Of a stretch of DNA of 36,377 nucleotides, positions 3,042-36,377 are shown piece after piece. Where the stretch lies: the NCBI GenBank assembly GCA_964365535.1, contig CAYIQG010000002.1, positions 1 through 36,377 on the forward strand, read 5' to 3'. A program made the position numbers and the translations under genes. The notes below the pieces were generated by a model. That model was not told the origin of the DNA, did no database searches, and saw only the letters and a list, made by a program, of their open reading frames with translations. Origin of the DNA: an uncultured Candidatus Saccharibacteria bacterium (GTDB taxonomy: Bacteria > Patescibacteriota > Minisyncoccia > Phycocordibacterales > PALSA-1337). The first letter of the stretch is position 1. Each line of letters starts with the position of its first letter.

Positions 3042-3064
3042 TTATTTGTTATTTCTGCTTCGTT

Positions 3065-3092
3065 TGTCATTCCCGCGAAAGCGGGAATGACA
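3065..3092. repeat. Palindromic REP-like element, copy 1 (TGTC-ATTCCCGC-GAAA-GCGGGAAT-GACA)
   Basis: 12-bp perfect stem with a GAAA loop, 24 nt after the gpmA stop. The core ATTCCCGCGAAAGCGGGAAT recurs at 20672-20691 and 27612-27631. Confidence 0.85.
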
Positions 3093-3260
3093 TTTGTGTC
3101 GTAATATTTGAACAAATTACATCATAGCTGGCGAGTTAGTGAATAAGCCATTATTTCAGAATTGTTTTTGACTACAAGTCAATTTTATTGAATCAAATGG
3201 TAAGTAGTTGACGGAGGAGTATAATAGTCCGAGCGAGAGTTAATCAACTCGCCTAATAAT

Positions 3261-3332
3261 ATGGCAGAACCAGTCAAGAAGCCGGTTCCTCCGGTACCGC
3301 CACAGCCGACAACACCGCCTGCAGAGGCGTAG
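3261..3332 (+). CDS. Speculative 23-aa proline-rich micro-ORF (MAEPVKKPVPPVPPQPTTPPAEA)
   Basis: ATG-to-TAG frame in an otherwise empty 330-bp spacer, GC-rich compared with its surroundings. A + strand terminator hairpin follows 15 nt later. No homology support. Confidence 0.15.
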   Translation: MAEPVKKPVPPVPPQPTTPPAEA

Positions 3333-3346
3333 TTTTCGGTAGAAGG

Positions 3347-3371
3347 AAGCCCCATACGGGGTTTTCTTTTT
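3347..3371 (+). terminator. Intrinsic terminator (AAGCCCC-ATAC-GGGGTTT + TCTTTTT)
   Basis: Short G/C-rich stem followed by a T-run on the + strand only. It abuts the eno stop codon, but the polarity fits a + strand transcript. Confidence 0.5.
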
Positions 3372-3373
3372 AC

Positions 3374-4678
<1,305 letters not shown>

Positions 4679-11672: not shown

Positions 11673-11750
11673 TTACGTCAATTGAAATATTATTATTTAC
11701 CATGGGTCATTTTTAGATTTTGTCAAGTAATTATCAGCTATTTATCAATT

Positions 11751-14700
11751 ATGTCAATAAAACATAACAAAACACTTCTCAAATCATTTGTAGGAACGGT
11801 CGTAGTAATTCTGGGTGTTATGAGTGTTGCAAGTGCAAATATGAATGATAGTATCATGACAACCTCAACTAAACCCTATATGACTCCTCAAGCGCAAACT
11901 ACGCCACTTACTCAATTTCAAACTACGGAATTTACGGAAACGGCCACAACCACAATAACTACTCCGTTTAAGCTAACCAATGAAAGTGGCAATGATGCTG
12001 GCACAGAAATCAACACTACAGAGACAAATTCAAATATTTCACTAGCTGGAATGTTATATGCTGGACCAGCTCAAAGTCGTTCTATTGTATTTCCACGAGC
12101 GAATTATGTTGGTCAACATGTTTATCATCAACTATTCGAGACTGTAAACGATTTTACTGCTTTAGGCGGAACAATAGCGATTGATACAGTGAATGTCTTG
12201 GCTGGCATTTCATCAATTGCTTTCACTGGAACGATTGGAACTTCAAGATATATTGATATTGCAGGGTTAGATCTTGACTTAGAAGGAACGCAAGGAATGT
12301 TAAGAGTTTATATTCCAGCTGGAAACGGTACGACTGCTTATTCGACTATAAGTAAGATTTGGATAAGACTCATCAATAATAATGGAACATCATATCTTTA
12401 TAATCTATGGAGTCCTGCGAATACAGCAGAAGCAGGTTGGTACGAATTACCCTTTCTTCCTGACGCAGATTATAGAAGTATACCAGCACAGTATATACCA
12501 AAAATAACCAATATTACTGAAATTAGAATAGGCTATGATGTTTCTAGTGCCAGTAATGTTCCGGTGGTCAATTTTGATGAATTACTATTTTTCGAATCCA
12601 GAAATAAGAAACCACTTTTACTTCTGTATGCTGATGGCACTTATAGAAGACAAAATGATTTAGCTAATTATTATCGAAGTCTGAATCTTGCTAGCACTAC
12701 TGTTTCAGGAAAACCGACATTTGTTTTTGCTACTTCTCCTGGTCACACGGACTCATCTATAGGAATGACTTTTATGACACTTGGTCAATTACAAGAACAA
12801 ATCAAGGCTGGCAATCAAAATGCTATTTATGCTGATATTGGATATCCTACTCAATGGGTTGGTTATAGTACAACGCAGAAAACAAATAATGTCGCAACTA
12901 TACAAGATTGGTGGCAATCAAATGGATTTCCTACTCCTAAATCACTTTCAATTTCAGGTGTAAATGGCGTGCTTTCAAGCGATAATCTTGCTTTCTGGGG
13001 AAGATATATCAATCTAGTATTAGGAGGAAATTCGTATGCTGGTGAACGATGGGTTAATACTTTATATAATCCTAGTTATAATCGGATTACTCAATTTACA
13101 GATGTAAATGGAATGATGCAATCAACCGCTGAATTTGACCCGACTTCAGGAATCGTAAAAATTAGCGGAAGCGGAGACGCATATTGGTCCGTAATGTATC
13201 CTGTAAAGTTTACATCAACAGGGACTTTGCCTACCAGCGTTCCCCAGATTACCTCCAGCACGATTTATTGGTTCAGGAATATTGATCAGATGTGGGGTCG
13301 CATTTATCCCACGGCGACTGACGCAATGAATAAAACCAATCAAATTACCTTTTCTAATATTGGAACTGGTTCGCATTATATTGTCACAAAAAAACAAAAT
13401 AATGATGAAGATTTTGGTATAAAAGTCGTCTCTTGGTTGAAAGCAAAAGGTGTATGGGTTCAAGCTATGCACATAAATAGCGATGATGAATTAGTTGTTG
13501 GAAAGTTTGAGGCAGATGTATTCGCTAATATGGCAAATGCTGGAGAAATACAATTTGCTAATACTGATGAATATATCTCTGGAGCTGGAGTCATTGAAGA
13601 TACAACTTCTTGCGGTACGGGATTGGATTGTACTGAAACGAGCAATGGCATAATGATTGCTGGAGATAGTGCACAAGCAGATGGTTTAACTAAAGGATTA
13701 GCGACATTCAATTCAACTAATTTTTCTGATAATGGAAGTGGCGTGATAAATACGGTACAAAATATTGATCAGTCATCTAATCTAGTTTTAGGTGGATTGA
13801 GTCTCCGTGCAATTTCTCCACCAAGTTCGGCACCAAAAGCAACAACGATGTCAAATATTGCTCAAAATCACAGTTTTGAACTTGCCAGTTCTGCCAATTG
13901 GGGACAGACTTTTGCTTCATGGTATAATCAAGCCGGTAATGGAACGATTACAGATGAGACATCTTTTGTCCATTTCGGTAGTCATGCGGCAAAATTAACG
14001 ACTAACACTGGAGCATCTGATATTTATTTTAAGACTGTTATTGAACCGGGGACAACTTATTACTGGTCATTCTACACTAGAGGAGATGGAACATATCAGG
14101 GTAGATACAAAATCTATGACCAAACAAATGGTGCCGATATTGTTAGTACGACAAATACTGGTGTTACGGAAACATCTTATACTAGAGTCTCGGGTTCATT
14201 TGTCGCTTCTGTCGGAAGCAGAGTAATATATTTCATATTTTATTCTCCTTCTGGAACTTCTGGTCCTCGAGTAGCTTATTTTGACGATGTGTATATCGGG
14301 ACACATCCATCAGGAAATATTGCCGATGGCACATATTATTATACTGTAACTGCGTTAAATGGTTCAAACGAATCGGCTACGAGCACGGAAAGTCCTGCGA
14401 TTACTTTATCGAATATAGGAGGTAATGGTATGATTCTTCTTTCGTGGGCAACAACAACTGGGGCAACATCATACAAAGTTTATCGCACGACAACATCACA
14501 ATCCTATGGGGCCACATCATATTTAGGTAATCCTTCAACTACATATTATGAAGATAGTTCAGTTTCTCCTACAGCGGGAATGCCACCGTTGACGCCAACA
14601 GATTTTATTTCGCTTAGCGGAACCGCCACAAGTACATTCGGGAATGGTATAAATTTATCTGCTGGATGTTTTGCGATAAATAATGTTTGTATAAGCGGTG

Positions 14701-15374
14701 GCAGTGGTAGTAATCTCGTCGTAAATCTCGGAGTAACCGGAATAAGCGCGGTGCAAACATTTGCCTCTGCGGATAATACTTTTGAAAACGGTTGGAAATG
14801 GGTTTTTGATGTTACTGTTCCGACAAATAAAACTGCTTTGAAAATGAAATTCGCCGACTGGACGAAAGGTTCGGATGTTATTCCAGCCGAAGGTAATATT
14901 CGTATTTATTCGGCGCAATCTTCAAATGCCTATGATTCTCTCCATGCGATCACTATAAATACTGCCGGTACATACAGTGATGAAATGGATCTCAATCCTA
15001 ATATTGATCTCGATGCGATTTCAAAATCAGGCAGACAAATCCAAATAATTGTTGAAGCGCGTGTTCCAGAAAGCTCTGCCGGCGGATCTTATTCTACGAG
15101 TTATGGAATAAAATCTATTCCTGACACTATTGTGCCAGTCATAACATGGGTAGATCCGGCACCAATTTCAGGAGGAACTGCTCTCTCAAGTACCCAATTA
15201 AATGCGATAGCGTCTGTTGATGGAACATTTTCCTACACTCCAGCTAAGGGGACAATTCTACCAGTAGGCTCAAACGAACTTTCAGTTGGATTTACTCCTG
15301 CGGATAGCATAAATTACTCTTCTGTTAGTAAGAAAGTTACAATTGATGTTATTCTCAACATCTATGGATGGTGA
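11751..15374 (+). CDS. Large secreted multidomain surface protein (Thr-rich linker, CBM4_9-like module, Fn3, C-terminal Ig-like repeat)
   Basis: Signal peptide KSFVGTVVVILGVMSVASA after the ATG at 11751 (the track start 11682 is a TTG). CBM4_9-like NHSFE...W...YYWSFYTRGDG...AYFDDVYI. Fn3-like DGTYYYTVTALNG...YKVYRTT. C-terminal ITWVDPAPISGGTALSSTQLNA...FTPADSINY repeat. Confidence 0.75.
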   Translation: MSIKHNKTLLKSFVGTVVVILGVMSVASANMNDSIMTTSTKPYMTPQAQTTPLTQFQTTEFTETATTTITTPFKLTNESGNDAGTEINTTETNSNISLAGMLYAGPAQSRSIVFPRANYVGQHVYHQLFETVNDFTALGGTIAIDTVNVLAGISSIAFTGTIGTSRYIDIAGLDLDLEGTQGMLRVYIPAGNGTTAYSTISKIWIRLINNNGTSYLYNLWSPANTAEAGWYELPFLPDADYRSIPAQYIPKITNITEIRIGYDVSSASNVPVVNFDELLFFESRNKKPLLLLYADGTYRRQNDLANYYRSLNLASTTVSGKPTFVFATSPGHTDSSIGMTFMTLGQLQEQIKAGNQNAIYADIGYPTQWVGYSTTQKTNNVATIQDWWQSNGFPTPKSLSISGVNGVLSSDNLAFWGRYINLVLGGNSYAGERWVNTLYNPSYNRITQFTDVNGMMQSTAEFDPTSGIVKISGSGDAYWSVMYPVKFTSTGTLPTSVPQITSSTIYWFRNIDQMWGRIYPTATDAMNKTNQITFSNIGTGSHYIVTKKQNNDEDFGIKVVSWLKAKGVWVQAMHINSDDELVVGKFEADVFANMANAGEIQFANTDEYISGAGVIEDTTSCGTGLDCTETSNGIMIAGDSAQADGLTKGLATFNSTNFSDNGSGVINTVQNIDQSSNLVLGGLSLRAISPPSSAPKATTMSNIAQNHSFELASSANWGQTFASWYNQAGNGTITDETSFVHFGSHAAKLTTNTGASDIYFKTVIEPGTTYYWSFYTRGDGTYQGRYKIYDQTNGADIVSTTNTGVTETSYTRVSGSFVASVGSRVIYFIFYSPSGTSGPRVAYFDDVYIGTHPSGNIADGTYYYTVTALNGSNESATSTESPAITLSNIGGNGMILLSWATTTGATSYKVYRTTTSQSYGATSYLGNPSTTYYEDSSVSPTAGMPPLTPTDFISLSGTATSTFGNGINLSAGCFAINNVCISGGSGSNLVVNLGVTGISAVQTFASADNTFENGWKWVFDVTVPTNKTALKMKFADWTKGSDVIPAEGNIRIYSAQSSNAYDSLHAITINTAGTYSDEMDLNPNIDLDAISKSGRQIQIIVEARVPESSAGGSYSTSYGIKSIPDTIVPVITWVDPAPISGGTALSSTQLNAIASVDGTFSYTPAKGTILPVGSNELSVGFTPADSINYSSVSKKVTIDVILNIYGW

Positions 15375-18972: not shown

Positions 18973-20669
18973 ATAAAAAATACGCCGAGATAGACCCGGA
19001 TGAAATACTTTTGGATTCCAGCAATATACCCAAATATGATTCATATCAGTTTGAAGGCCGATTGGAGAAACCGATTTCTAAGATGGCGCTAGTCGCGACG
19101 GGTGCTTTCTTCGCCCTAATAGCGGTTGTTTTCGCTATCCGCGCGTGGAACATTCAAATAACTAATGGTGAAGCATACAAAAATAGAAGCGAGAGAAACT
19201 TGCTTCGGCCCGCGCCTATATTCGCGGGAAGAGGAGTTATTTTCGATAGAAACGGCGTAGAACTCGCTTGGAATGCCCCAGCGGAAATATCAACAAACGC
19301 ATCGGCTGCGGCTTCTGCGAACATAGGGGATATTGTGGCGCGCCGAATGTACGCGACGACAACAGGTATGGCTCATGTGCTCGGTTATGTGCGGTATCCC
19401 ACGAAGGATAATAACGGTTTCTATTATCGCGAGGACTTCGAAGGAGTTGATGGGGCGGAAAAATATTTTAATGAAAATCTGCGTGGCGCGAATGGTTCGC
19501 GATTGGTTGAGGTTGACGCGAAAGGAAATATTTTTTCGGAGAATATCGCGCGTTCGCCGGAGCAGGGCGGGAACATCACGCTTTCCATAGATAGCCGCGC
19601 GCAGTCGGCGCTTTACGATAATATAAAAGATGTGGCTGACAGCGTTGGCTTTGCCGGAGGCGCCGGGGTTATCATGGATATTTCTACCGGAGAAATTATA
19701 GCCATAACCAGCTATCCGGAATATAGTCCTCAAATTATATCCGATAGGGCCGATTCATCGGCAATAAAGAAAATGCTAAATGATTCGAATTTACCATTCT
19801 TGGATAGGGCGATTGACGGGCTCTATACCCCCGGTTCAATCGTGAAGCCGTATATAGCTCTGGGTGTTTTGAATGAAAATATCATAGACCCGTCTGCTAT
19901 CATTGTGACTAACGGTTCCATATCTTTGCCGAATCCATATGATTCGGCGAAATCTACCGTCTTCAGGGATTGGAAAAATAACGGTTCTCTTGATTTGCGC
20001 CGCGCTATCGCGATGTCTTCCGACGCGTATTTCTATATTGTTGGCGGCGGTTACAAAGACCAGAAAGGTTTGGGTATCGCCAAGATTGACCAGTATTTGA
20101 GGATGTTTGGATTTGGAACCGCTATTCCGGCTTCTTTCGTGTCTGGCAAAAGCGGGACTATTCCCACGCCGGAATGGAAGAAATCAACTTTTAATGAAGA
20201 GTGGTATGTTGGAAACACATATCATACCGCCATAGGACAATACGGATTCCAGGTTACGCTTGTGCAAATAGTTCGCGCCATGGCGGCTATCGCGAATAAC
20301 GGCGTCATGCTTGTTCCGACTATATTGAAAGACTCCGTTTTGCCTATAGATCGCGTTATCGATATAATTCCCGAAAAGGATTATCAAATAGTTCGCGAGG
20401 GTATGCGTCTCGGCGTTACGGAAGGAACGAGTAAGGCTCTAAATGTTCCATATGTCACGGTAGCGGGGAAGTCCGGTACGGCTGAACTTGGGGTGAGTAA
20501 AGAGAAAGTAAATTCATGGATGACCGGTTTCTTCCCTTATGAGAACCCGCGATATGCTTTTGCCGTGATGTTGGAAAAAGGCTCAGTTCGCAATATGATC
20601 GGCGCGGCGAGGGTAATGAGAAAGCAACTTGATTGGATGAATGTTAATACGCCCGAGTATTTCAAGTAG
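18969..20669 (+). CDS. mrdA: Penicillin-binding protein 2 (class B transpeptidase)
   Basis: N-terminal anchor. SxxK as GSIVKP, SxD/N as SSDAYF, KSGTA (KTG-type box). Follows the mreBCD genes. Confidence 0.9.
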   Translation: MNKKYAEIDPDEILLDSSNIPKYDSYQFEGRLEKPISKMALVATGAFFALIAVVFAIRAWNIQITNGEAYKNRSERNLLRPAPIFAGRGVIFDRNGVELAWNAPAEISTNASAAASANIGDIVARRMYATTTGMAHVLGYVRYPTKDNNGFYYREDFEGVDGAEKYFNENLRGANGSRLVEVDAKGNIFSENIARSPEQGGNITLSIDSRAQSALYDNIKDVADSVGFAGGAGVIMDISTGEIIAITSYPEYSPQIISDRADSSAIKKMLNDSNLPFLDRAIDGLYTPGSIVKPYIALGVLNENIIDPSAIIVTNGSISLPNPYDSAKSTVFRDWKNNGSLDLRRAIAMSSDAYFYIVGGGYKDQKGLGIAKIDQYLRMFGFGTAIPASFVSGKSGTIPTPEWKKSTFNEEWYVGNTYHTAIGQYGFQVTLVQIVRAMAAIANNGVMLVPTILKDSVLPIDRVIDIIPEKDYQIVREGMRLGVTEGTSKALNVPYVTVAGKSGTAELGVSKEKVNSWMTGFFPYENPRYAFAVMLEKGSVRNMIGAARVMRKQLDWMNVNTPEYFK

Positions 20670-20694
20670 TCATTCCCGCGAAAGCGGGAATCTA
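20669..20694. repeat. Palindromic REP-like element, copy 2 (GTCATTCCCGCGAAAGCGGGAATCTA)
   Basis: Identical over 26 nt to copy 3. Its first base is the last base of the PBP2 TAG stop. Confidence 0.85.
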
Positions 20695-23485: not shown

Positions 23486-23488
23486 TTT

Positions 23489-23654
23489 CACCCAAACGGC
23501 GAGTATATTCATTTTCTGAAGCCTGCGAGACTCATGTCGTTAAATTGCAAGAAATATTGGCTCCTAACGGTGGAGCCAATATTTCTAAGCAATTTATACT
23601 CCATTCAGACAAAATTCTCGGCTTCAGAAAATGAATATACTCGCCGTTTGGGTG
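23489..23654. repeat. 166-nt long palindrome (35-bp perfect outer arms, about 24-bp inner hairpin)
   Basis: CACCCAAACGGCGAGTATATTCATTTTCTGAAGCC (23489-23523) is the exact reverse complement of 23620-23654. Inner arms are 23541-23564 / 23572-23596, with a 15-bp perfect core AGAAATATTGGCTCC. Confidence 0.9.
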
Positions 23655-23664
23655 GGGAATTCAT

Positions 23665-23731
23665 CCTTTTTTGAGACTTTTTTTATCCTTTTTTCATTGT
23701 TTTTTTATCGAAATTTCATACTTTTTTGAAC
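23665..23731 (+). repeat. Helically phased T-tract array (degenerate 11-bp tandem repeat)
   Basis: T6-T7 runs start at 23667, 23678, 23689, 23700 and 23722. Only a weak TTT at 23714-23716 marks the phase-predicted 23711 position. All spacings are multiples of 11 bp. Confidence 0.8.
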
Positions 23732-23760
23732 ATTTCTTCATAACTCATTTCGTATGATAT

Positions 23761-24039
23761 ATGTATTATCAGTTTAATCCATATATTTCTATGCCCTTAG
23801 AACAAAAAGATTTGGAACTCATTGAGCATTTGCTTTACAAGAATAGCGATGAAATCGGCATCGCCATCGGTCGAAGTTTCGAGCGTCTAGAGGAACGAAT
23901 GGACTGCATAGAGTCTCGGACTTACGCGCGGTTGGCGGAATTAGAGGAAAAGATTGAAGATGTTAGACAAAGCGTGACCGATATATTAGAGGCGATGCGT
24001 GAGGATATTCGTGAGATGGGTAAAGTCGAGCTGGAATAA
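23761..24039 (+). CDS. Hypothetical small coiled-coil protein
   Basis: 92-aa ORF, charged heptad-like sequence (LEERMDCIESRTYARLAELEEKIEDVRQSV). I recognise no motif. An alternative start lies at the ATG at 23791. Confidence 0.45.
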   Translation: MYYQFNPYISMPLEQKDLELIEHLLYKNSDEIGIAIGRSFERLEERMDCIESRTYARLAELEEKIEDVRQSVTDILEAMREDIREMGKVELE

Positions 24040-27605: not shown

Positions 27606-27608
27606 TAT

Positions 27609-27634
27609 GTCATTCCCGCGAAAGCGGGAATCTA
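27609..27634. repeat. Palindromic REP-like element, copy 3 (GTCATTCCCGCGAAAGCGGGAATCTA)
   Basis: Starts 4 nt after the ctpA stop. Identical over 26 nt to copy 2. Confidence 0.85.
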
Positions 27635-29610: not shown

Positions 29611-30903
29611 ATACGATAGGGGGTTAAGATATGCCTTGAAATCCGCGACGGGGATAATCGCGCCAGTGCAATGAGATGATTGTGATAAAGCCAATTTTCT
29701 TATTTCGACGCCTTGTGTGGCATAAACTCCATAATGCAAATGTGGGCCGGTGGTATAACCAGTATTACCGCTATAGCCGATTATTTGCCCAGTCGTCACA
29801 CTTTGACCGATTGATACGGATTGAAGAGATAAATGCGCGTATAGGGTTGATAGGCCGTTTTGATGTTTTACCATGATCCATTTGCCGTATGAATAGCATC
29901 CGGGAATAGCATCCGTGTTACTCATGCCAACAACGGTTCCAGAAAGAGATACTTTTATCGGCGTGCCGATAGATGCTCTAAGGTCGATACCGTTATGTCC
30001 TTTACCTCCATATATTTGAGCATTGGCGGTTGCGAATGGCGTGTTACCGAAATATTGGGTGATAAATACCTTATCTAATGGCCAAGATAGAACACCTGAG
30101 CCGGTACGAGGAAGCTTTGATGTGTCAATAGAAAGCTTTAACTGCGATTCATATTCCAGCACTTCCCTCTCGAAAGCGTCTTTTTGGGCTTTTTTATCAG
30201 CGAGAATTTGTTTGTACTTTATTTCGCTTTGTTTTGTATCTTTCAATAACTGATTCTTTTCACCTTGAGTGTTCAACACCACCTGCCTCTGGTCTTTCAA
30301 TTGATTATTGAGTTTAACGAGATCGGCTTTGGCTTTTTCCGTGGCGGTTTTGTTTGTTTCAAGGTTTGCTTTGGTCTGACGCAAATCATTGATGCGATTG
30401 ATAAGATTGCCTTGGACTTTTCCGAGCTCATCTAGAGCATTCCACGCGGTGGAAATCGAATTGCTTGATAATAATATTTCCGGAATTGATTGCTCGTTCG
30501 TTTGTTCCATCAATACCAATGAATATGAGATTATTCTATTGTCATCTACTATCGTTTCTTCTTTTCCTTGAATTTGTTTGCCTAATTCTTGAATCTCCAG
30601 ATTCTTATTAGCTATTCTATTTTCTGTAACTTGGATATCCGCTTGCAATTTCTTCTGCGTAAGGTCCAAAGTCTTTATAGTCGCGGATAATGAATTAGCT
30701 TGAATTCCAAGGTCATTGATTTGCGTCTGAAATCCCGCTATTTCTTTTTCCAATGCTTGAATATCGGTATTGCGCGCGTTAATCTTTGCTTGAATGTCAG
30801 AGGTTGTATCAGCATATGAAATAGCCGATATTACAATGATAGCAATAATCCAAATGGCCAATTGAATCTGCTTGCATTTTAGCGTTTGTTTAATAGGACG
30901 CAT
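29605..30903 (-). CDS. M23 family peptidoglycan metalloendopeptidase with a long N-terminal coiled coil (EnvC-like architecture)
   Basis: Signal/anchor, about 250 aa of heptad-rich sequence, then HNGIDL and GYSGNTGYTTGPHLHYGVY (LytM/M23 motifs). Confidence 0.88.
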   Translation of the reverse strand: MRPIKQTLKCKQIQLAIWIIAIIVISAISYADTTSDIQAKINARNTDIQALEKEIAGFQTQINDLGIQANSLSATIKTLDLTQKKLQADIQVTENRIANKNLEIQELGKQIQGKEETIVDDNRIISYSLVLMEQTNEQSIPEILLSSNSISTAWNALDELGKVQGNLINRINDLRQTKANLETNKTATEKAKADLVKLNNQLKDQRQVVLNTQGEKNQLLKDTKQSEIKYKQILADKKAQKDAFEREVLEYESQLKLSIDTSKLPRTGSGVLSWPLDKVFITQYFGNTPFATANAQIYGGKGHNGIDLRASIGTPIKVSLSGTVVGMSNTDAIPGCYSYGKWIMVKHQNGLSTLYAHLSLQSVSIGQSVTTGQIIGYSGNTGYTTGPHLHYGVYATQGVEIRKLALSQSSHCTGAIIPVADFKAYLNPLSYL

Positions 30904-32231
30904 GCTTTTTCTATACGCGTTAGAGATTCCGCCTTTTCAAGAATAAACGCCGAAGTAAACGGGTCCGGAGATTTTTCTTGACCTGTTAGCGCCACTCGAA
31001 GCGGCCAGAGAACATCACCCCTTCCCTTCTCTTCGGCATATTTCCATAGAGTGTCTTTTATTGTGTCCGCGGTGAATTGATCGTCCGGAATAGTTTCCAA
31101 GAGTTCGCGCGATTTCAACAAATATGTTCTGGTTAAAACCGTGTCTGGTTGATTCTTCCATAACAAAAGCTTCGAATCATAAGCCGGCAATTCCTTGACA
31201 AAGAATAGTTCATTGCCTTTTTCAAATACTTGAGTTAAGTCAGACAATTTATGGGTTTTGTCGCGAAGTATTGATAACATTCGCTTGAATGTATCGCTTT
31301 TACTTCCTAACCATTTGGGCAAAAAAGGAGATGCTTTCTCAATAAAATCAGTATCGCTCAATTTCAGCAAATATTGGCGGTTGAACCAGAGGAGTTTCTC
31401 GGGATTAAAGATTGCTCCGGCTTTTTGAATTTTTTCCAGACTAAACTTCTCTATCATTTCATCCATGCTGATTATTTCCTGGTCACCTCCGGGATTCCAT
31501 CCCAGTAAAGCCAAGAAATTCAGTAAAGCATCGGGTAAATAACCGTTCTTTTGGTAATACTCGACTGAGACTATTTCGCCGTGTTTCCTCTTCGACATTT
31601 TTTCCCTATTCTCGGTAAGTATTAAGGGAATATGGCCATATGCAGGTCTCTCGACTTCACCTATCGCTTCCCAAATCATAATCTGGCGCGGAGTATTAGA
31701 TAAATGCTCCTCACCTCTTATAATATGGGTAATTCCGGAGATTATGTCATCAACAACATTAGAAAAGTGGAAAATCGGCTCATCTAAGCTTTTTGCTATG
31801 ATAAAATCGCCCAGTTCCGCCGTATTAAACTTAACCTCGCCCTTAATAAGGTCGGCAATGATAATATCCTTATTTTCATTTCTGAATCTGATAACCTCGC
31901 TCCTCTGCCCGGCTTCTTTAATTTCTTCTTTGGAGACATAGGCTTTGCCGGATGAAATCAATTTCTCAAGATATTTTCGGTGAATGGGGAAATTATCCGA
32001 TTGTTTACGCACGCTATCGAATTTTAATCCCAACCAATCAAATGCCTGGATAATACCTTCGATATATTCATCTTTATTTCTCTCTTGGTCGGTGTCTTCA
32101 ATTCTAAGTAAAATCTTTCCCGCGTTTTGTTTGGCAAAAACATAATTGAACAAAGCCGTTCTTACTCCCCCGACATGGAGATAACCGGTCGGCGAGGGCG
32201 CGAATCTGGTAATAACTTTGTTACTCATCAT
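30879..32231 (-). CDS. gltX: Glutamyl-tRNA synthetase
   Basis: RFAPSPTGYLHVGGVRTAL (HIGH-type) and KMSKRK. ATGs lie at 32231 and 32228 (the track TTG is at 32255). The 3' end overlaps the M23 gene start by 25 nt. Confidence 0.93.
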   Translation of the reverse strand: MMSNKVITRFAPSPTGYLHVGGVRTALFNYVFAKQNAGKILLRIEDTDQERNKDEYIEGIIQAFDWLGLKFDSVRKQSDNFPIHRKYLEKLISSGKAYVSKEEIKEAGQRSEVIRFRNENKDIIIADLIKGEVKFNTAELGDFIIAKSLDEPIFHFSNVVDDIISGITHIIRGEEHLSNTPRQIMIWEAIGEVERPAYGHIPLILTENREKMSKRKHGEIVSVEYYQKNGYLPDALLNFLALLGWNPGGDQEIISMDEMIEKFSLEKIQKAGAIFNPEKLLWFNRQYLLKLSDTDFIEKASPFLPKWLGSKSDTFKRMLSILRDKTHKLSDLTQVFEKGNELFFVKELPAYDSKLLLWKNQPDTVLTRTYLLKSRELLETIPDDQFTADTIKDTLWKYAEEKGRGDVLWPLRVALTGQEKSPDPFTSAFILEKAESLTRIEKACVLLNKR

Positions 32232-32234
32232 TTG

Positions 32235-32243
32235 ATTATACCA
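32235..32243 (-). promoter_or_regulatory. Extended -10 TGGTATAAT directly upstream of gltX
   Basis: Minus-strand reading: TGGTATAAT-CAA-ATG-ATG. The spacing is 3 nt to the first ATG and 6 nt to the second. Confidence 0.45.
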
Positions 32244-32246
32244 AAA

Positions 32247-32383
32247 CGGAAACAATTCCGCTTACTTCGCCGACCACTTCCCTCCGAGACGAATCGCCCC
32301 GCGCCGCTAAGTCTCGTCGGGAAGTGTCGGTTTCGTTGCGGAATTGTTTCCGACGAAGAAAGCCGGCGATTGAACCGGCTTTC
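32247..32383 (-). other. GC-rich nested hairpin (15-bp outer stem) plus a second 9-bp hairpin between the hypothetical gene and gltX
   Basis: CGGAAACAATTCCGC (32247-61) pairs with GCGGAATTGTTTCCG (32338-52). An inner imperfect stem pairs 32271-90 with 32311-30. A separate hairpin GAAAGCCGG/CCGGCTTTC lies at 32358-83. The local GC content is clearly above that of the flanks. Confidence 0.6.
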
Positions 32384-32411
32384 CCATTCAAGTAAAAAAT
32401 ACTTGAAACAA

Positions 32412-32909
32412 TTAACCCTTTATCTCGGCATTCGCCGTGGCGCTGGCACGGAAGGGACGCATTATGACATTACCATTCGCGTCTTTTAGAGGTGAATCTT
32501 TCGTAATATCGAATTCACCGTCGCCATCATCGGAATACATGACGGCGTAATAGGCTCCGCCATCTATCGTCGGCTGATTCAAAGTTACTTTGACTGGATT
32601 TGTGCCGACTATGACATTGGCAGAACCAATAACCACGCCCGGCTGACCCGCATTGTCTTTTTGGATAGCGACCCAGCCGGTATTCGCGGCTTGAACCGAT
32701 GAAATGTAAACAACATTACCCGGGAATTGATTTGACATAATAATGTTATTTGCTGTCTGCGTCGCAGGAGTAGTTGTTTCCTCGCCTGTTACCGGTGCTT
32801 CGGCTTTCTTATTGCCAAAGACGAAAATACCGATAATAATAAGGACAATAATGACTATAACAGTGACTATCCACTGCCAAGTCTTCACGCCGCTTTGTTC
32901 TGGTTGCAT
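32412..32909 (-). CDS. Hypothetical membrane-anchored extracytoplasmic protein (beta-rich domain)
   Basis: N-terminal TM helix WQWIVTVIVIIVLIIIGIFVF, a Thr-rich linker, then a roughly 100-aa beta-rich domain (GWVAIQKDNAGQPGVVIG...YYAVMYSDDGDGEFD). I cannot assign a function. Confidence 0.6.
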   Translation of the reverse strand: MQPEQSGVKTWQWIVTVIVIIVLIIIGIFVFGNKKAEAPVTGEETTTPATQTANNIIMSNQFPGNVVYISSVQAANTGWVAIQKDNAGQPGVVIGSANVIVGTNPVKVTLNQPTIDGGAYYAVMYSDDGDGEFDITKDSPLKDANGNVIMRPFRASATANAEIKG

Positions 32910-32999
32910 AGTATTAATAATAATTAATGTTTATAATTCGACTTATTTGGTTTTGATATTATAGCATACTATTTACTTGTCAAATGCGTATATTAAAAC

Positions 33000-34133
33000 C
33001 TATTTTTCGTGTTGGAGCGCGATATCCAAAATAGCATTAGCGATAATATCGGCGCTATCCGTTCTTGAAAACGCCCTTGCTCTCTCCTTCATAGTTTGAG
33101 TAATTGTCACGGAGTCATATATATGATTTATTTCTTCCATTAGAATATGCGCGCTCAAGTTGTTTTCCTCGATAATCGCCGCCGCGCCGGTTTTCGAATA
33201 CGCGTAAGCGTTCATGACCTGGTCGTGACTTATAGAGCTTGGCAAAGGAATAATGATTGATGGCACTCCCCAACCGGCGATTTCGAATATCGTTGAACCG
33301 GCCCGAGAGACTATGACATTGGCGACCCCGGCGGACATTCGCAAGGCAAGCTCATTCAAATAATCGAATGGATGATAGCGACTAGCATTGGGATGTCCTT
33401 TCAAACTAATGGAAATTGTCTGTTTTATATCTTCGATATTCGCTTTTCCGGTTTGGTGAATTACTTGGTATTTATTCAAAAGCTCCGGTAACGCCTCCAG
33501 AATAGCGTTATTGATGAGCGCCGCGCCTTGTGAACCGCCAAGAATCAGAATAACCGGAGTATTTTGTTCCAATCGCAGAAACTCTCGCGCGCCATTCGAT
33601 AATGGCTGCGCTATTTCTTTCCGGATAGGATTTCCCGTGTAGGCGATTTTATTTTTATCTGTGTTGAAATACCGCGCGGCGTCAGGATATGATAATGCTA
33701 TTTTACGCGCGAATTTTCCGGCCCAGGAATTGACTCTCCCGGGCTTACTATCGGATTCATGGATAATCACGGGGATTTTCAAAAGTCTCGCGGCTAATAA
33801 TGGCGGAAAACTTCCATATCCGCCTTTGCTAAAAACAACATCCGGATACAGAGAATACATTTTAAACAATGCCGTAACGCAGCCATAAATAGTCTTGAAC
33901 AAGTCGGTGATATTCAATAGAGAAAAATACCGGCGCAACTTTCCCGCTGGAACGAATACGAATTCGATATCATTATCGAAAAGCGCGCGGGAATTGTATT
34001 TCGACGGCGCCATAAAATAATAAAGCGGCGGCAATATCTTCCTTTCTCTGGCCTTTTCTTGAATAGCTTGCGCGACGGCGATTATCGGATAAAAGTGGCC
34101 CCCAGTCTCGCCGCCCGTGAATAAGATTTTCAT
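33000..34133 (-). CDS. murG: Undecaprenyldiphospho-muramoylpentapeptide beta-N-acetylglucosaminyltransferase
   Basis: KILFTGGETGGHFYP N-terminal G-loop, GGSQGA, SRAGSTIFE. Sits next to a SEDS gene. Confidence 0.92.
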   Translation of the reverse strand: MKILFTGGETGGHFYPIIAVAQAIQEKARERKILPPLYYFMAPSKYNSRALFDNDIEFVFVPAGKLRRYFSLLNITDLFKTIYGCVTALFKMYSLYPDVVFSKGGYGSFPPLLAARLLKIPVIIHESDSKPGRVNSWAGKFARKIALSYPDAARYFNTDKNKIAYTGNPIRKEIAQPLSNGAREFLRLEQNTPVILILGGSQGAALINNAILEALPELLNKYQVIHQTGKANIEDIKQTISISLKGHPNASRYHPFDYLNELALRMSAGVANVIVSRAGSTIFEIAGWGVPSIIIPLPSSISHDQVMNAYAYSKTGAAAIIEENNLSAHILMEEINHIYDSVTITQTMKERARAFSRTDSADIIANAILDIALQHEK

Positions 34134-34150
34134 ATTACATATAATAACAC

Positions 34151-35251
34151 TTATTTCGCGTATTTAGAAATATTCGCGACTATTCCGGCGGCCGCGAGCG
34201 TAATAATAAGAGCGGTTCCGCCATGAGATACGAATAATAGCGGTACGCCAAAGAGCGGAACAAGACCCAGCATGGCCGCCATATTCAAGAATGATTCCGT
34301 GATAATAAGAATCGCGATGCCTATCGCCACGAAGCCTCCGAATGAATCCGGTGAACGAGCGCCGATCCTGAAGGAACTTATCACTAAAATTAAATAGAGA
34401 ATAATCAAGGCAACACTGCCGACAAATCCGAATTCTTCGGCTGATACGGCGAAAATGGAATCATCGGTTGGTTGCGGTAAATAGCCGAACTTTTGCACGC
34501 CTTGTCCGAAACCGCGGCCGGTCAGTTGTCCAGACCCGATTGCTATCAATGATTGATTTATTTGATATCCCGCCCCTTGCGCGTCACTCCCGCCGTTAAT
34601 AAAGGTCATAATGCGTTCTTTGGCATATGGCCGCAGGATTACAACGCCGATAACTACGGTACACAATAATACTCCGACAAATAGTATGTGTTTTATGGGC
34701 ATTCCCGCTATAAAAAACATAATTAAACCGGTAAAAGCAATGATAACCAAAGTACTGGTATTAGATTGAGATAAAAGAAGAACACTCAAAATAGCTATTA
34801 GTATCACATAAGGTATGAAACCAGACTTAATGTTCCTTATTCTATCCTTAACATGATGTATCCATGCCGCCGCGTATATTATAAAAGCGATTTTCAGGAA
34901 TTCGGACGGTTGGAAGCTTAGAAAACCGACGCTGATCCAACGCGACGCGCCGCCATAAAAAAGTGAAATCTGGGGAATAAATAATAAAAGATTTAGCCCG
35001 ATCGCGAATAGGAAAATAAAGAAAGCGGTTTTGCGTAAGTAAGTATATTTGACTTTCGATAAGCCGAAAAATATTATAAGCCCGATAATCAAACTGGCGC
35101 TTTGTTTTAGCGCGACCGTCCCGAAATTTGCTCCATTTTGAGCCAATAATCCCAAAGAAGCCGACAAGAATATTACAAAACCGCATGTTGTTAACATGAT
35201 TACCGATACTAGAAATAGACGATTGATTTTACCTTTACCGGAGATGCCCAT
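34151..35251 (-). CDS. ftsW: SEDS-family peptidoglycan glycosyltransferase (FtsW/RodA)
   Basis: About 10 TM segments, QPSEFLK, DDSIFA, SHGGTAL motifs. Called ftsW only because it lies directly upstream of murG. Confidence 0.85.
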   Translation of the reverse strand: MGISGKGKINRLFLVSVIMLTTCGFVIFLSASLGLLAQNGANFGTVALKQSASLIIGLIIFFGLSKVKYTYLRKTAFFIFLFAIGLNLLLFIPQISLFYGGASRWISVGFLSFQPSEFLKIAFIIYAAAWIHHVKDRIRNIKSGFIPYVILIAILSVLLLSQSNTSTLVIIAFTGLIMFFIAGMPIKHILFVGVLLCTVVIGVVILRPYAKERIMTFINGGSDAQGAGYQINQSLIAIGSGQLTGRGFGQGVQKFGYLPQPTDDSIFAVSAEEFGFVGSVALIILYLILVISSFRIGARSPDSFGGFVAIGIAILIITESFLNMAAMLGLVPLFGVPLLFVSHGGTALIITLAAAGIVANISKYAK

Positions 35252-35257
35252 TTTGCT

Positions 35258-35266
35258 ATTGTAACA
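35258..35266 (-). promoter_or_regulatory. Extended -10 TGTTACAAT, 6 nt upstream of the ftsW ATG
   Basis: Minus-strand reading: TGTTACAAT-AGCAAA-ATG(35251). Confidence 0.5.
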
Positions 35267-35328
35267 TTAATTATCTCGTTTTCCCTATTGATTCTTTTCC
35301 GAATCCAAAGAAATAGAAAGTGACTATT

Positions 35329-35358
35329 GAATATATGGCTTAATAGAGCCACATATTC
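35329..35358. promoter_or_regulatory. Palindrome GAATATATGGCT-TAATAG-AGCCACATATTC, related to the 28554-28577 motif
   Basis: 12-bp arms with one mismatch. It shares the ATATGGCT/AGCCA(C)ATAT core and sits 31 nt upstream of the -35 element of the putative ncRNA promoter. Confidence 0.4.
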
Positions 35359-35388
35359 ACAGTAGTCATCAACAAAGTGTAAAAATGC

Positions 35389-35416
35389 TTGACAAAATAT
35401 GTGGGTATGCTATGCT
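35389..35416 (+). promoter_or_regulatory. Near-consensus promoter TTGACA-N16-(TGc)TATGCT
   Basis: TTGACA at 35389-94 and TGCTATGCT at 35408-16. No ORF of 60 aa or more follows on either strand for about 520 nt. Confidence 0.6.
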
Positions 35417-35422
35417 ATCGGC

Positions 35423-35905
35423 AGATAAGGACATTGATACGGTGGTCCACTGGCATGCGTTCCACTTTGGTTTTCTGTCATAGAAATCAAAGTGGAGCGC
35501 GTGCCTAGGTGATTTTTGTGGGATCCCATCTTGGCGCTAGCGACCTTAGAGGCAAAATCTGATACGCCTCAAGAGTCTGGTTGAGACAGAAACAAAGTCT
35601 TGACCTAAGAAGTGAGTTTTAAAACTTCTTCGAACTTTTCTGGCGTTGGGATGCAACTGGCGCTGGAGTTTACGAAGATGTTCACTTCTTGAAAGACCAT
35701 AAAACTGCTGTAGATTATTTGGAGAGCAGATCTCAATAATCTCAAGCAGAGGTCTGCAATACCTCTGTGTCAGCAGAAATTTGGATCCTCCACCAAAAAA
35801 GGGCTATCGGGTAAGACCATTATAGCCAAGGAACCCGCTATCCTATGAACATTGCGGACTGGGCGCGCGCCGACTTACTGAGTCGACCCGCGCCCTTTTT
35901 CTTTT
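35423..35905 (+). ncRNA. Candidate ~480-nt structured non-coding RNA of unknown class
   Basis: Bounded by the promoter above and an intrinsic terminator (GGGCGCG...CGCGCCC + TTTTTCTTTT, 35861-35905). 18-bp helix 35452-69/35488-505 with two U.G pairs. 9-bp helix 35579-87/35597-605 with two wobbles. Three-way junction at 35705-35776. The wobble pairs would be A.C mismatches on the other strand. Confidence 0.55.
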
Positions 35906-35940
35906 CATAGAAATAATTAGTCAATAGAAGACTAATGAGA

Positions 35941-36377
35941 CTAATAAATAACTCCTATGGCTCTTTTTACCTCTACCAATTTCTTGTTCGCCTTTTCATT
36001 CGTTTTCACCGCGCTCTCTTTCAATATTTCAATTACTCGTTTTTCATCTTTTGCCAACTCCACGCGCCGTTCTCGAAGAGGTTCAATAAATGCGTTAATG
36101 TCTTCAATTAACGCCTCCTTCAAGATTTTATACTTACCGATATTTTTCTCATAAAATAGTTTCAATTCTTTTCCATCTTTAAAAAGTCTGTGAATATTAA
36201 AAACATTTTCTGGAATACCGGCACCGGAATCCGTAACAATACTCATTACCGCCTTCGCAATTTCCTCGCGACTAGCAAATAATGGAATTGTATTGTCATA
36301 ACTTTTCGACATTTTACGACCATCAATTCCCGGAACAGTCGCAACACCTTCTATAATCAAGGGTTCAGGTAGTTTAA
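35941..36377 (-). CDS. trpS: Tryptophanyl-tRNA synthetase, C-terminal part (gene runs off the window)
   Basis: LPEPLIIEG...IDGRKMSKSYDNTIPLF (KMSKS) and a C-terminal anticodon-binding helix bundle. The frame stays open to position 36377. Confidence 0.85.
   Translation of the reverse strand, partial: KLPEPLIIEGVATVPGIDGRKMSKSYDNTIPLFASREEIAKAVMSIVTDSGAGIPENVFNIHRLFKDGKELKLFYEKNIGKYKILKEALIEDINAFIEPLRERRVELAKDEKRVIEILKESAVKTNEKANKKLVEVKRAIGVIY

Follow-up and report, generated by a model that had tools for sequence, protein, structure and literature searches.

The window, which is the whole stretch of 36,377 nt analysed here (contig CAYIQG010000002.1 of assembly GCA_964365535.1, from an uncultured Candidatus Saccharibacteria bacterium), probably carries, between ftsW and trpS, the gene of a genuine, independently transcribed and stable structured non-coding RNA (ncRNA). 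The RNA would represent an undescribed, lineage-restricted family with a conserved frame and a fast-evolving or exchangeable body. Its length is ~480 nt in the window and about 365–415 nt in sister lineages (L062 ~366, L003 ~416). Two types are distinguished. The window RNA is A-type, found in the lineage that includes the parent scaffold L070, L071 and L066, and B-type RNAs fall into B1 (L062, L063, L067 and L068) and B2 (L003 and L060).

The locus lies among ordinary housekeeping genes and is bounded as follows:

34151–35251, - strand: ftsW
35252–35940: spacer of 689 bp between ftsW and the trpS stop codon
35941, - strand: trpS stop codon

An earlier note, made on this DNA from the letters alone, had pointed to a very long spacer without an open reading frame (ORF) of 60 aa or more. 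The spacer is indeed the longest in the window, where four other ORF-free gaps reach ~450–500 bp, and its longest ORF has 47 aa. The same note proposed a promoter-to-terminator unit on the + strand, and both signals are present:

35389–35416, + strand: sigma-70-type promoter, TTGACA, 16-nt spacer and TG-n-TATGCT (extended -10)
35421–35451, + strand: putative RNA 5' leader, its start placed ~5–7 nt past the -10 hexamer
35861–35905, + strand: intrinsic terminator, GGGCGCGCGCCGACU / AGUCGACCCGCGCCC, then UUUUUCUUUU, pair probability ~1.0

The promoter has 10 of 12 consensus matches in addition to the extended -10 TG, and L062, L068 and L003 have the same two hexamers and the same TG. It exists as described, but it is not strictly the best in the window, as had been claimed, because a site with 11 of 12 matches at 11757 on the - strand scores higher. 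The combination of a perfect -35 with the TG occurs at only one other place in the window (11643, + strand). The terminator arms (35861–35875 and 35881–35895) are followed by TTTTTCTTTT on the + strand. On the - strand the hairpin is followed by AGTCCGCAAT and there is no T-run, in agreement with the GC-rich, + strand-only terminator of the note. The terminator must be rated very strong, as its stem has at least 13 pairs rich in GC and a U-run follows. Hairpin and U-run are present in A, B1 and B2, and they are kept between L062 and L003 at 48% identity, with four double-sided changes.

The RNA strand folds better than its complement. The + strand of 35420–35905 has a predicted folding energy of -189.5 kcal/mol (z = -8.0, 100 dinucleotide shuffles), which is far beyond shuffled sequence and supports the long structured RNA that had been proposed, and the reverse complement has -166.8 kcal/mol (z = -5.8). 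The same asymmetry is found in the sister lineages, with z of -9.46 on the RNA strand against -4.69 on the opposite strand in L062, and -5.95 against -2.3 in L003. The opposite strand is weaker by 23–42 kcal/mol in the three RNAs. Pair probabilities from the partition function are at least 0.9 for hairpin H1, for the body helices named below up to 35749 and for the terminator:

35452–35474 with 35483–35505, + strand: H1 hairpin, 23 bp, four G.U pairs, mean pair probability 0.91
35542–35553 with 35566–35577, + strand: helix, pair probability at least 0.96
35579–35587 with 35597–35605, + strand: helix, pair probability 1.00
35606–35615 with 35682–35691, + strand: helix, pair probability 0.96, enclosing the two inner helices
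35627–35632 with 35673–35678, + strand: inner helix within 35606–35691
35638–35649 with 35657–35668, + strand: inner helix within 35606–35691, six G.U among 12 pairs
35705–35709 with 35745–35749, + strand: CUGCU helix of the minimum-energy fold, pair probability at least 0.9
35764–35777, + strand: helix, part of the A-type body

All helices listed in the earlier note are present, with two corrections: H1 has 23 bp rather than 18, and the strand at 35705 pairs with 35745–35749, the CAGCAG at 35771–35776 being an alternative pairing outside the minimum-energy fold. The fold of the 3' domain of the A body is less certain than that of the high-probability helices upstream. H1 is an uninterrupted duplex without internal loop, and its arms are 86% Watson–Crick complementary. 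G.U pairs make up 21 of the 157 pairs in the minimum-energy fold. Such G.U-dependent pairing, reaching six of 12 pairs in one helix, indicates that the helices function as RNA structure, unlike palindromes of the DNA. Stability gained in this way is confined to the + strand.

Comparison of L062 with L003 indicates purifying selection on the B-type RNA. The two RNAs are clearly homologous (nhmmer E ~1e-47). Identity at 4-fold degenerate sites is 61% in ftsW and 54% in trpS, and it reaches 93% in H1, the best-conserved element of the RNA family, and 90% in a 73-nt core that follows the GCUAGCG motif. The leader is 79% identical, and the middle helices are 70% identical with large indels. In H1, 22 of 24 pairs are invariant and the other two carry single-sided changes to U.G, which keep the pairing only on the + strand. 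In the B consensus 10 double-sided changes stay paired, compared with 3.3 +/- 1.5 after shuffling and 2–3 when the partner is slid by 1–3 columns. This count is taken over three sequences from two lineages, and with so few sequences the evidence for selection is supportive rather than conclusive.

A-type and B-type RNAs share their ends and differ in between. The following features delimit the difference:

35533–35545, + strand: GGCGCUAGCGACC motif, last segment in common with B-type RNAs and left edge of the variable tract
35546–35887, + strand: A-type body, with high-probability helices, unalignable to B-type bodies
35941–36377, - strand: 3' part of trpS, divergent tract, ~82% nucleotide identity to L062

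The window RNA aligns to B in two parts. The first begins at the promoter, includes H1 and ends with GGCGCUAGCGACC at 35545, and the second runs onward from the terminator 3' arm (from 35888). The 5' portion in common measures 125 nt. When the whole window was searched with a B-core covariance model and all filters disabled, nothing was returned at the RNA locus, and no homologue of the A body, which holds most helices of the earlier note, was detected in any collection searched, sister lineages included. Short collinear islands of A and B (GCUAGCG, CAUAAAACUG and the terminator start) are about as many as chance allows, so that homology of the two bodies is unproven. Each type also has a 10-nt perfect palindrome, UGGGAUCCCA in A and GAGUGCACUC in B, with ~0.4 expected per sequence by chance. 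These palindromes could be candidate dimerisation sites.

The A body is part of a bounded mosaic tract (~35546–36330) between otherwise closely related populations. To its left, window positions 30057–35508 are 97.3–98.7% identical to L062. To its right, the side with Fic, DnaJ and the 5' part of trpS is about 94–97% identical (~97% over the 5' 600 nt of trpS). Only over the 3' half of trpS does identity fall, to ~75–82%. The C-terminus of the window TrpS is 77% identical to its closest sisters and 70–74% to other genera. A bounded divergent stretch that also covers the 3' half of trpS points to imported DNA, and with the TrpS C-terminus at only 77% the simplest history is the import of the trpS 3' part together with the RNA body. 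The donor was most likely a carrier of the locus that branches more deeply, and the transfer would have taken place by homologous recombination.

The A allele is no assembly artefact. It is found in three independent assemblies (L066, L070 and L071) at 21–43x coverage. In L066 (21x) the A body is contiguous with H1 and with a complete trpS, and two long scaffolds at ~40x also carry A. L070 is the parent scaffold Hain_H43_01um_R2_309 (50.6 kb, 43x). Just past the right end of the window it has a gap of 100 N in trpS (L070 2836–2935), flanked by a duplicated 55-nt overlap, and L071 has the same gap structure. Because of this gap, trpS looks truncated and is called as 123 aa. Where variants occur together, a bubble in the assembly graph would be expected to leave just such traces at the tract edges, namely contig breaks and a 100-N gap.

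The locus is confined to a narrow clade of Paceibacterota from the Hainich aquifer. The earlier note had expected orthologous ftsW–trpS spacers in related genomes, and this expectation failed, since most relatives carry scpA and scpB at this place. In relatives with 61–85% FtsW identity the order is trpS–scpA–scpB–ftsW, on one strand and tightly packed, and those at 82–85% (L064, L065 and L069) have scpB directly upstream of ftsW. Only in the A, B1 and B2 lineages are scpA and scpB replaced by the oppositely oriented RNA unit. FtsW identity to the window is 98% in L062, L063, L067 and L068, and 89% in L003 and L060. FtsW and TrpS homologues traced to their contigs yielded as further carriers the B1 strain variants L063, L067 and L068 and the A assemblies L066, L070 and L071. 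All carriers are Hainich groundwater assemblies, or a third-party metagenome-assembled genome with a spacer sequence equal to that of one such assembly. The idea that the spacer is a decayed remnant of scpA or scpB was considered and dropped, as tblastn found nothing meaningful there.

Wider searches added no carrier. Nhmmer with the A, B1 and B2 RNAs against 69 loci gave no further homologue, and a covariance model of the 5' module, run against 520 kb of related Paceibacterota, returned only its source sequences. A metagenome scan with a 19-mer of H1 recovered a single true locus, L060, which has the L003 sequence; the other match, in a eukaryote-like contig, is due to chance. Blastn against phages and plasmids, and a search of viral contigs with three patterns, gave no match to the RNA locus. 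More distant carriers may exist beyond the collections scanned. Within the window, complementarity of the body to other regions is limited to matches of 11–13 nt, which is chance level.

No known RNA family and no conserved coding sequence accounts for the locus. The whole window has no match in Rfam 15 at gathering score. Three spacers (window 35200–36000, L062 3400–4010 and L003 3180–3820) were also scanned at E<=10, and no known family fits; the only matches were chance miRNA-type hits on H1 and weak small RNA (sRNA) hits on the terminator. The Rfam scan that the note had proposed as a check thus came back without a match to any known family even at this relaxed threshold. At gathering score, 16 related loci gave two tRNAs and one DUF3800-V RNA, none of them at the RNA locus. 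OLE, GOLLD, ROOL, HEARO and raiA RNAs have no match at gathering score in the window and none at E<=10 in the three spacers. A T-box leader was rejected, the unit being downstream of trpS and on the opposite strand, with no RF00230 match. With regard to coding potential, no ORF is conserved: a 118-aa ORF of L003 is absent from L062, and a 17-aa ORF inside H1 loses its AUG in L062.

In the explanation that we favour, the RNA gene would have arisen, or been inserted, at the site held by scpA–scpB in relatives. It would be read from the strong extended -10 promoter, divergently from ftsW, and its transcription would end at the strong intrinsic terminator just before the convergent trpS. A fixed 5' module (leader, H1 of 23–25 bp and GCUAGCG motif) and the terminator would be retained, while the body between them turns over fast. 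Homologous recombination with a more distantly related carrier would most likely have brought in the A body along with the neighbouring 3' half of trpS, and A and B would be divergent or idiomorphic alleles. The RNA may act in trans as a folded molecule, e.g., by serving as a scaffold for proteins, and its two ends may be protected by H1 and by the terminator hairpin. Transcription, stability and any molecular function are, in this explanation, inferred.

Several points weigh against this explanation. Only three lineages are available (A, B1 and B2), apparently from one aquifer, and the covariation rests in effect on two B sequences, with none for the A body. Expression and the ends of the RNA are deduced from sequence signals. 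Plain DNA palindromes in the same genome fold strongly as well, which makes a low folding energy by itself weak evidence. It is also awkward that the B core is 90% conserved yet wholly missing in A: either A acts differently, or the body matters less than the conservation in B suggests.

The conservation of H1 and of the B core far above the neutral level bears directly on two alternatives. The locus might be non-functional, fast-evolving spacer DNA, e.g., remains of insertions or of palindromic mobile elements that stayed behind when scpAB was lost, folding well by chance next to promoter-like and terminator-like sites. Body replacement between near-identical genomes and the very narrow distribution would suit this view, and in the same genome two palindromes resembling MITEs (miniature inverted-repeat transposable elements) have been inserted, at 23489–23654 and 32256–32355, both of which score extremely in folding. 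Debris is nevertheless quite unlikely, given compensatory changes in excess of the controls, stability that is strand-specific and G.U-dependent, promoter and terminator kept in all three types, and no detectable relic of scpA or scpB. A MITE-like element as such was rejected because the helices need G.U pairs and no second copy of the locus occurs in the window or in 520 kb of related loci. Alternatively, the unit might be a cis-acting device, either a source of convergent transcription that insulates ftsW–murG from trpS read-through, or a long sensor leader with a conditional terminator that allows an antisense transcript to enter trpS. In favour of this, the - strand offers trpS no terminator and the RNA gene points towards trpS, the unit arose exactly where scpAB was lost between trpS and ftsW, and the conserved B core, compact and built of two hairpins, has about the size of an aptamer. 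We regard a cis device as unlikely all the same: insulation alone would need neither H1 nor a core conserved at 90–93%, the terminator is very strong, no antiterminator pairing with its 5' arm was found, and the three spacers have no match to a known riboswitch or T-box. A function of the - strand, as a long structured 5' untranslated region of the ftsW–murG operon, is highly improbable. The spacer does lie directly upstream of ftsW on that strand, which also beats its shuffles (z = -5.8), but its folds are weaker with poorer z in all three lineages, the + strand is the one with promoter and U-run, and the H1 pairs altered on one side, which read U.G on the + strand, would be A.C on the - strand.

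Two further alternatives concern the class of the RNA. A strongly diverged housekeeping RNA, i.e., RNase P RNA, transfer-messenger RNA (tmRNA), signal recognition particle (SRP) RNA or 6S RNA missed by the Rfam models, would agree with the size and with the strong promoter and terminator, which are typical of rnpB or ssrA. RNase P RNAs were detectable only below Rfam thresholds in 10 of 35 complete genomes of the candidate phyla radiation (CPR) (Lui et al., 2021, PMC8172020), and the P4 strands were for this reason also inspected by hand. For RNase P RNA (RF00010 and RF00011) cmscan gave no match at E<=10, a search in which matches below ~12 bits would not show. By reading, no CR-I (GGAAAGUCC) or CR-V (ACAGAA..CCGGCUUA) strands able to form P4 were found, and no such strand pair is common to A and B. 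The P4 look-alikes of B-type RNAs (AAAAUCC and AAGGUUU) sit in locally paired, co-varying hairpins, AAGGUUU lying within a local hairpin of 8–12 bp that is maintained in B1 and B2. ARAGORN found no tRNA or tmRNA in the window, and the three spacers have no Rfam match at E<=10 to tmRNA, SRP RNA or 6S RNA, while H1 is without an internal loop. These searches and the reading concur with the note, which had not found the RNase P P4 motif, a tRNA-like end or tag of tmRNA and SRP domain IV. A catalytic or binding core would, moreover, persist between alleles with 94–98.7% identical flanks. Since A and B share no internal core, the locus is incompatible with any essential housekeeping RNA, and it is absent from most relatives. 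We consider this reading barely credible. An RNA of a mobile or defence system (a retron msr–msd, an omega or bridge RNA, or a type III antitoxin) with a body under conflict-driven selection is very unlikely, although a hypervariable body is framed by conserved ends, recombination appears to have brought in the tract, and a Fic/RhuM gene is two genes away. No carrier has an adjacent reverse transcriptase, IscB/TnpB, IS110 recombinase, toxin or integrase, the neighbours being DnaJ, TrpS, FtsW and MurG. Pfam scans of window ORFs of at least 100 aa gave no retron, omega, bridge or toxin partner domain (ORFs of 1230 aa and 253 aa match nothing), and the RNA has no tandem repeats and no phage, plasmid or viral match.

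A more far-reaching version of the independently transcribed structured RNA deserves mention as an outside chance. The locus might be an idiomorphic gene, in which a fixed frame (promoter, leader, H1 and terminator) carries alternative, unrelated and individually constrained bodies exchanged by recombination among co-occurring Patescibacteria. Such a polymorphism would be held by diversifying or frequency-dependent selection, e.g., in interactions with hosts, phages or sibling cells.

A spacer of 560–690 bp that is devoted to a strongly promoted, highly folded RNA with selected elements likely matters to the cell. If it encodes a real RNA family, the family is an undescribed one in a group not yet culturable. 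Whole-body replacement between flanks of 94–98.7% identity is unusual for a structured RNA and, if selection maintains it, nature has provided an experiment that can tell the necessary parts of a large RNA from the others. With one clade in apparently one aquifer, the distribution is narrow and limits the impact for now.

Upstream of the RNA gene, a repeat search revealed a possible regulatory site:

35328–35359, no strand: 13-bp inverted repeat TGAATATATGGCT / AGCCACATATTCA, separating the promoters of ftsW and of the RNA, which are divergent

One more half-site copy (AATATGTGG), the third, lies at 35397–35405, inside the spacer of the RNA promoter. These half-sites may form a putative operator common to the two divergent promoters, and the AATATGTGG-like inverted repeat is only partly conserved in L003. 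A predicted leader hairpin is not maintained in L003. Long-range pairing of leader and body was rejected, because the apparent partner in L003 turned out to belong to a local hairpin, of which it forms one arm and which shows covariation between B1 and B2.

Other observations were made along the window and in related loci. Positions 23489–23654 form a 166-nt hairpin with outer arms of 35 nt and inner arms of 15 nt, both 100% complementary. This is a perfect DNA-level palindrome, either MITE-like or a bidirectional terminator. The ORF-free gap around it (23486–23989) has a fold z of -11.5 on one strand and -15.0 on the other, and the palindrome is followed by five T-rich repeats phased at 11 nt (23660–23741). 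Positions 32256–32355 are an insertion of ~100 nt in the gltX / DUF7282 spacer, absent from L062 and L003 and bounded by 15-nt inverted repeats (CGGAAACAATTCCGC / GCGGAATTGTTTCCG), which looks like a small palindromic mobile element. An intergenic hairpin, GTCATTCCCGCGAAAGCGGGAATGAC, recurs at window positions 3063–3088, 20669–20691 and 27608–27631 and in L003 (2164–2189), L060 (658–683) and L007 (3263–3287); it is a repeat common to related Paceibacterota, resembling either repetitive extragenic palindromic (REP) elements or terminators. In the gap 3042–3373 (fold z -6.1), window positions 3200–3375 contain a promoter-like site, a proline-rich ORF of 23 aa, MAEPVKKPVPPVPPQPTTPPAEA (~3262–3333), and a terminator hairpin. 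The 1230-aa ORF at 11682–15374 has no Pfam match at E<=0.001, and the next gene encodes a 214-aa protein with CHB_HEX_C_1, Fn3_assoc and dockerin domains, probably a surface or secreted protein. In carriers, a gene with a Fic/RhuM domain lies two genes upstream of trpS (L062 508–1530 and L070 295–1317).

Among known systems, the locus has different partial counterparts. Riboswitch-controlled antisense RNAs, e.g., the Listeria B12 riboswitch with AspocR, have a structured leader and a terminator pointing convergently into the neighbouring gene. Unlike them, the present locus has no known aptamer or antiterminator that could be found, and its terminator lies outside the trpS coding region. Bacterial RNase P RNA, the diverged CPR forms included, resembles the window RNA in size range, housekeeping-style promoter and terminator, occurrence in Patescibacteria and scores below Rfam gathering thresholds. 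The window RNA differs from it in having neither an RF00010/RF00011 match (at E<=10) nor conserved P4 pseudoknot strands, in the lack of a common core in A and B and in the absence of the locus from most relatives. Intergenic sRNA loci are known to turn over with conserved ends and a body replaced between strains. The present locus is similar in that its middle is exchanged between a constant promoter and a constant terminator, with the breakpoints of recombination inside the gene, whereas typical base-pairing sRNAs are far shorter and less structured than the window RNA, and B has a strongly constrained core. The large ncRNAs OLE, GOLLD, ROOL, the raiA motif and HEARO are likewise stand-alone and noncoding, several hundred nt long with many helices, and have their own promoter and terminator. 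These are widespread classes, whereas the window RNA matches none of their covariance models, is confined to one clade in apparently one aquifer and has a body that is not conserved even between sister populations. The reading as an unrecognised structured RNA gene is partly supported, and the RNA is placed here as a new family of this known kind, the orphan structured bacterial ncRNAs.

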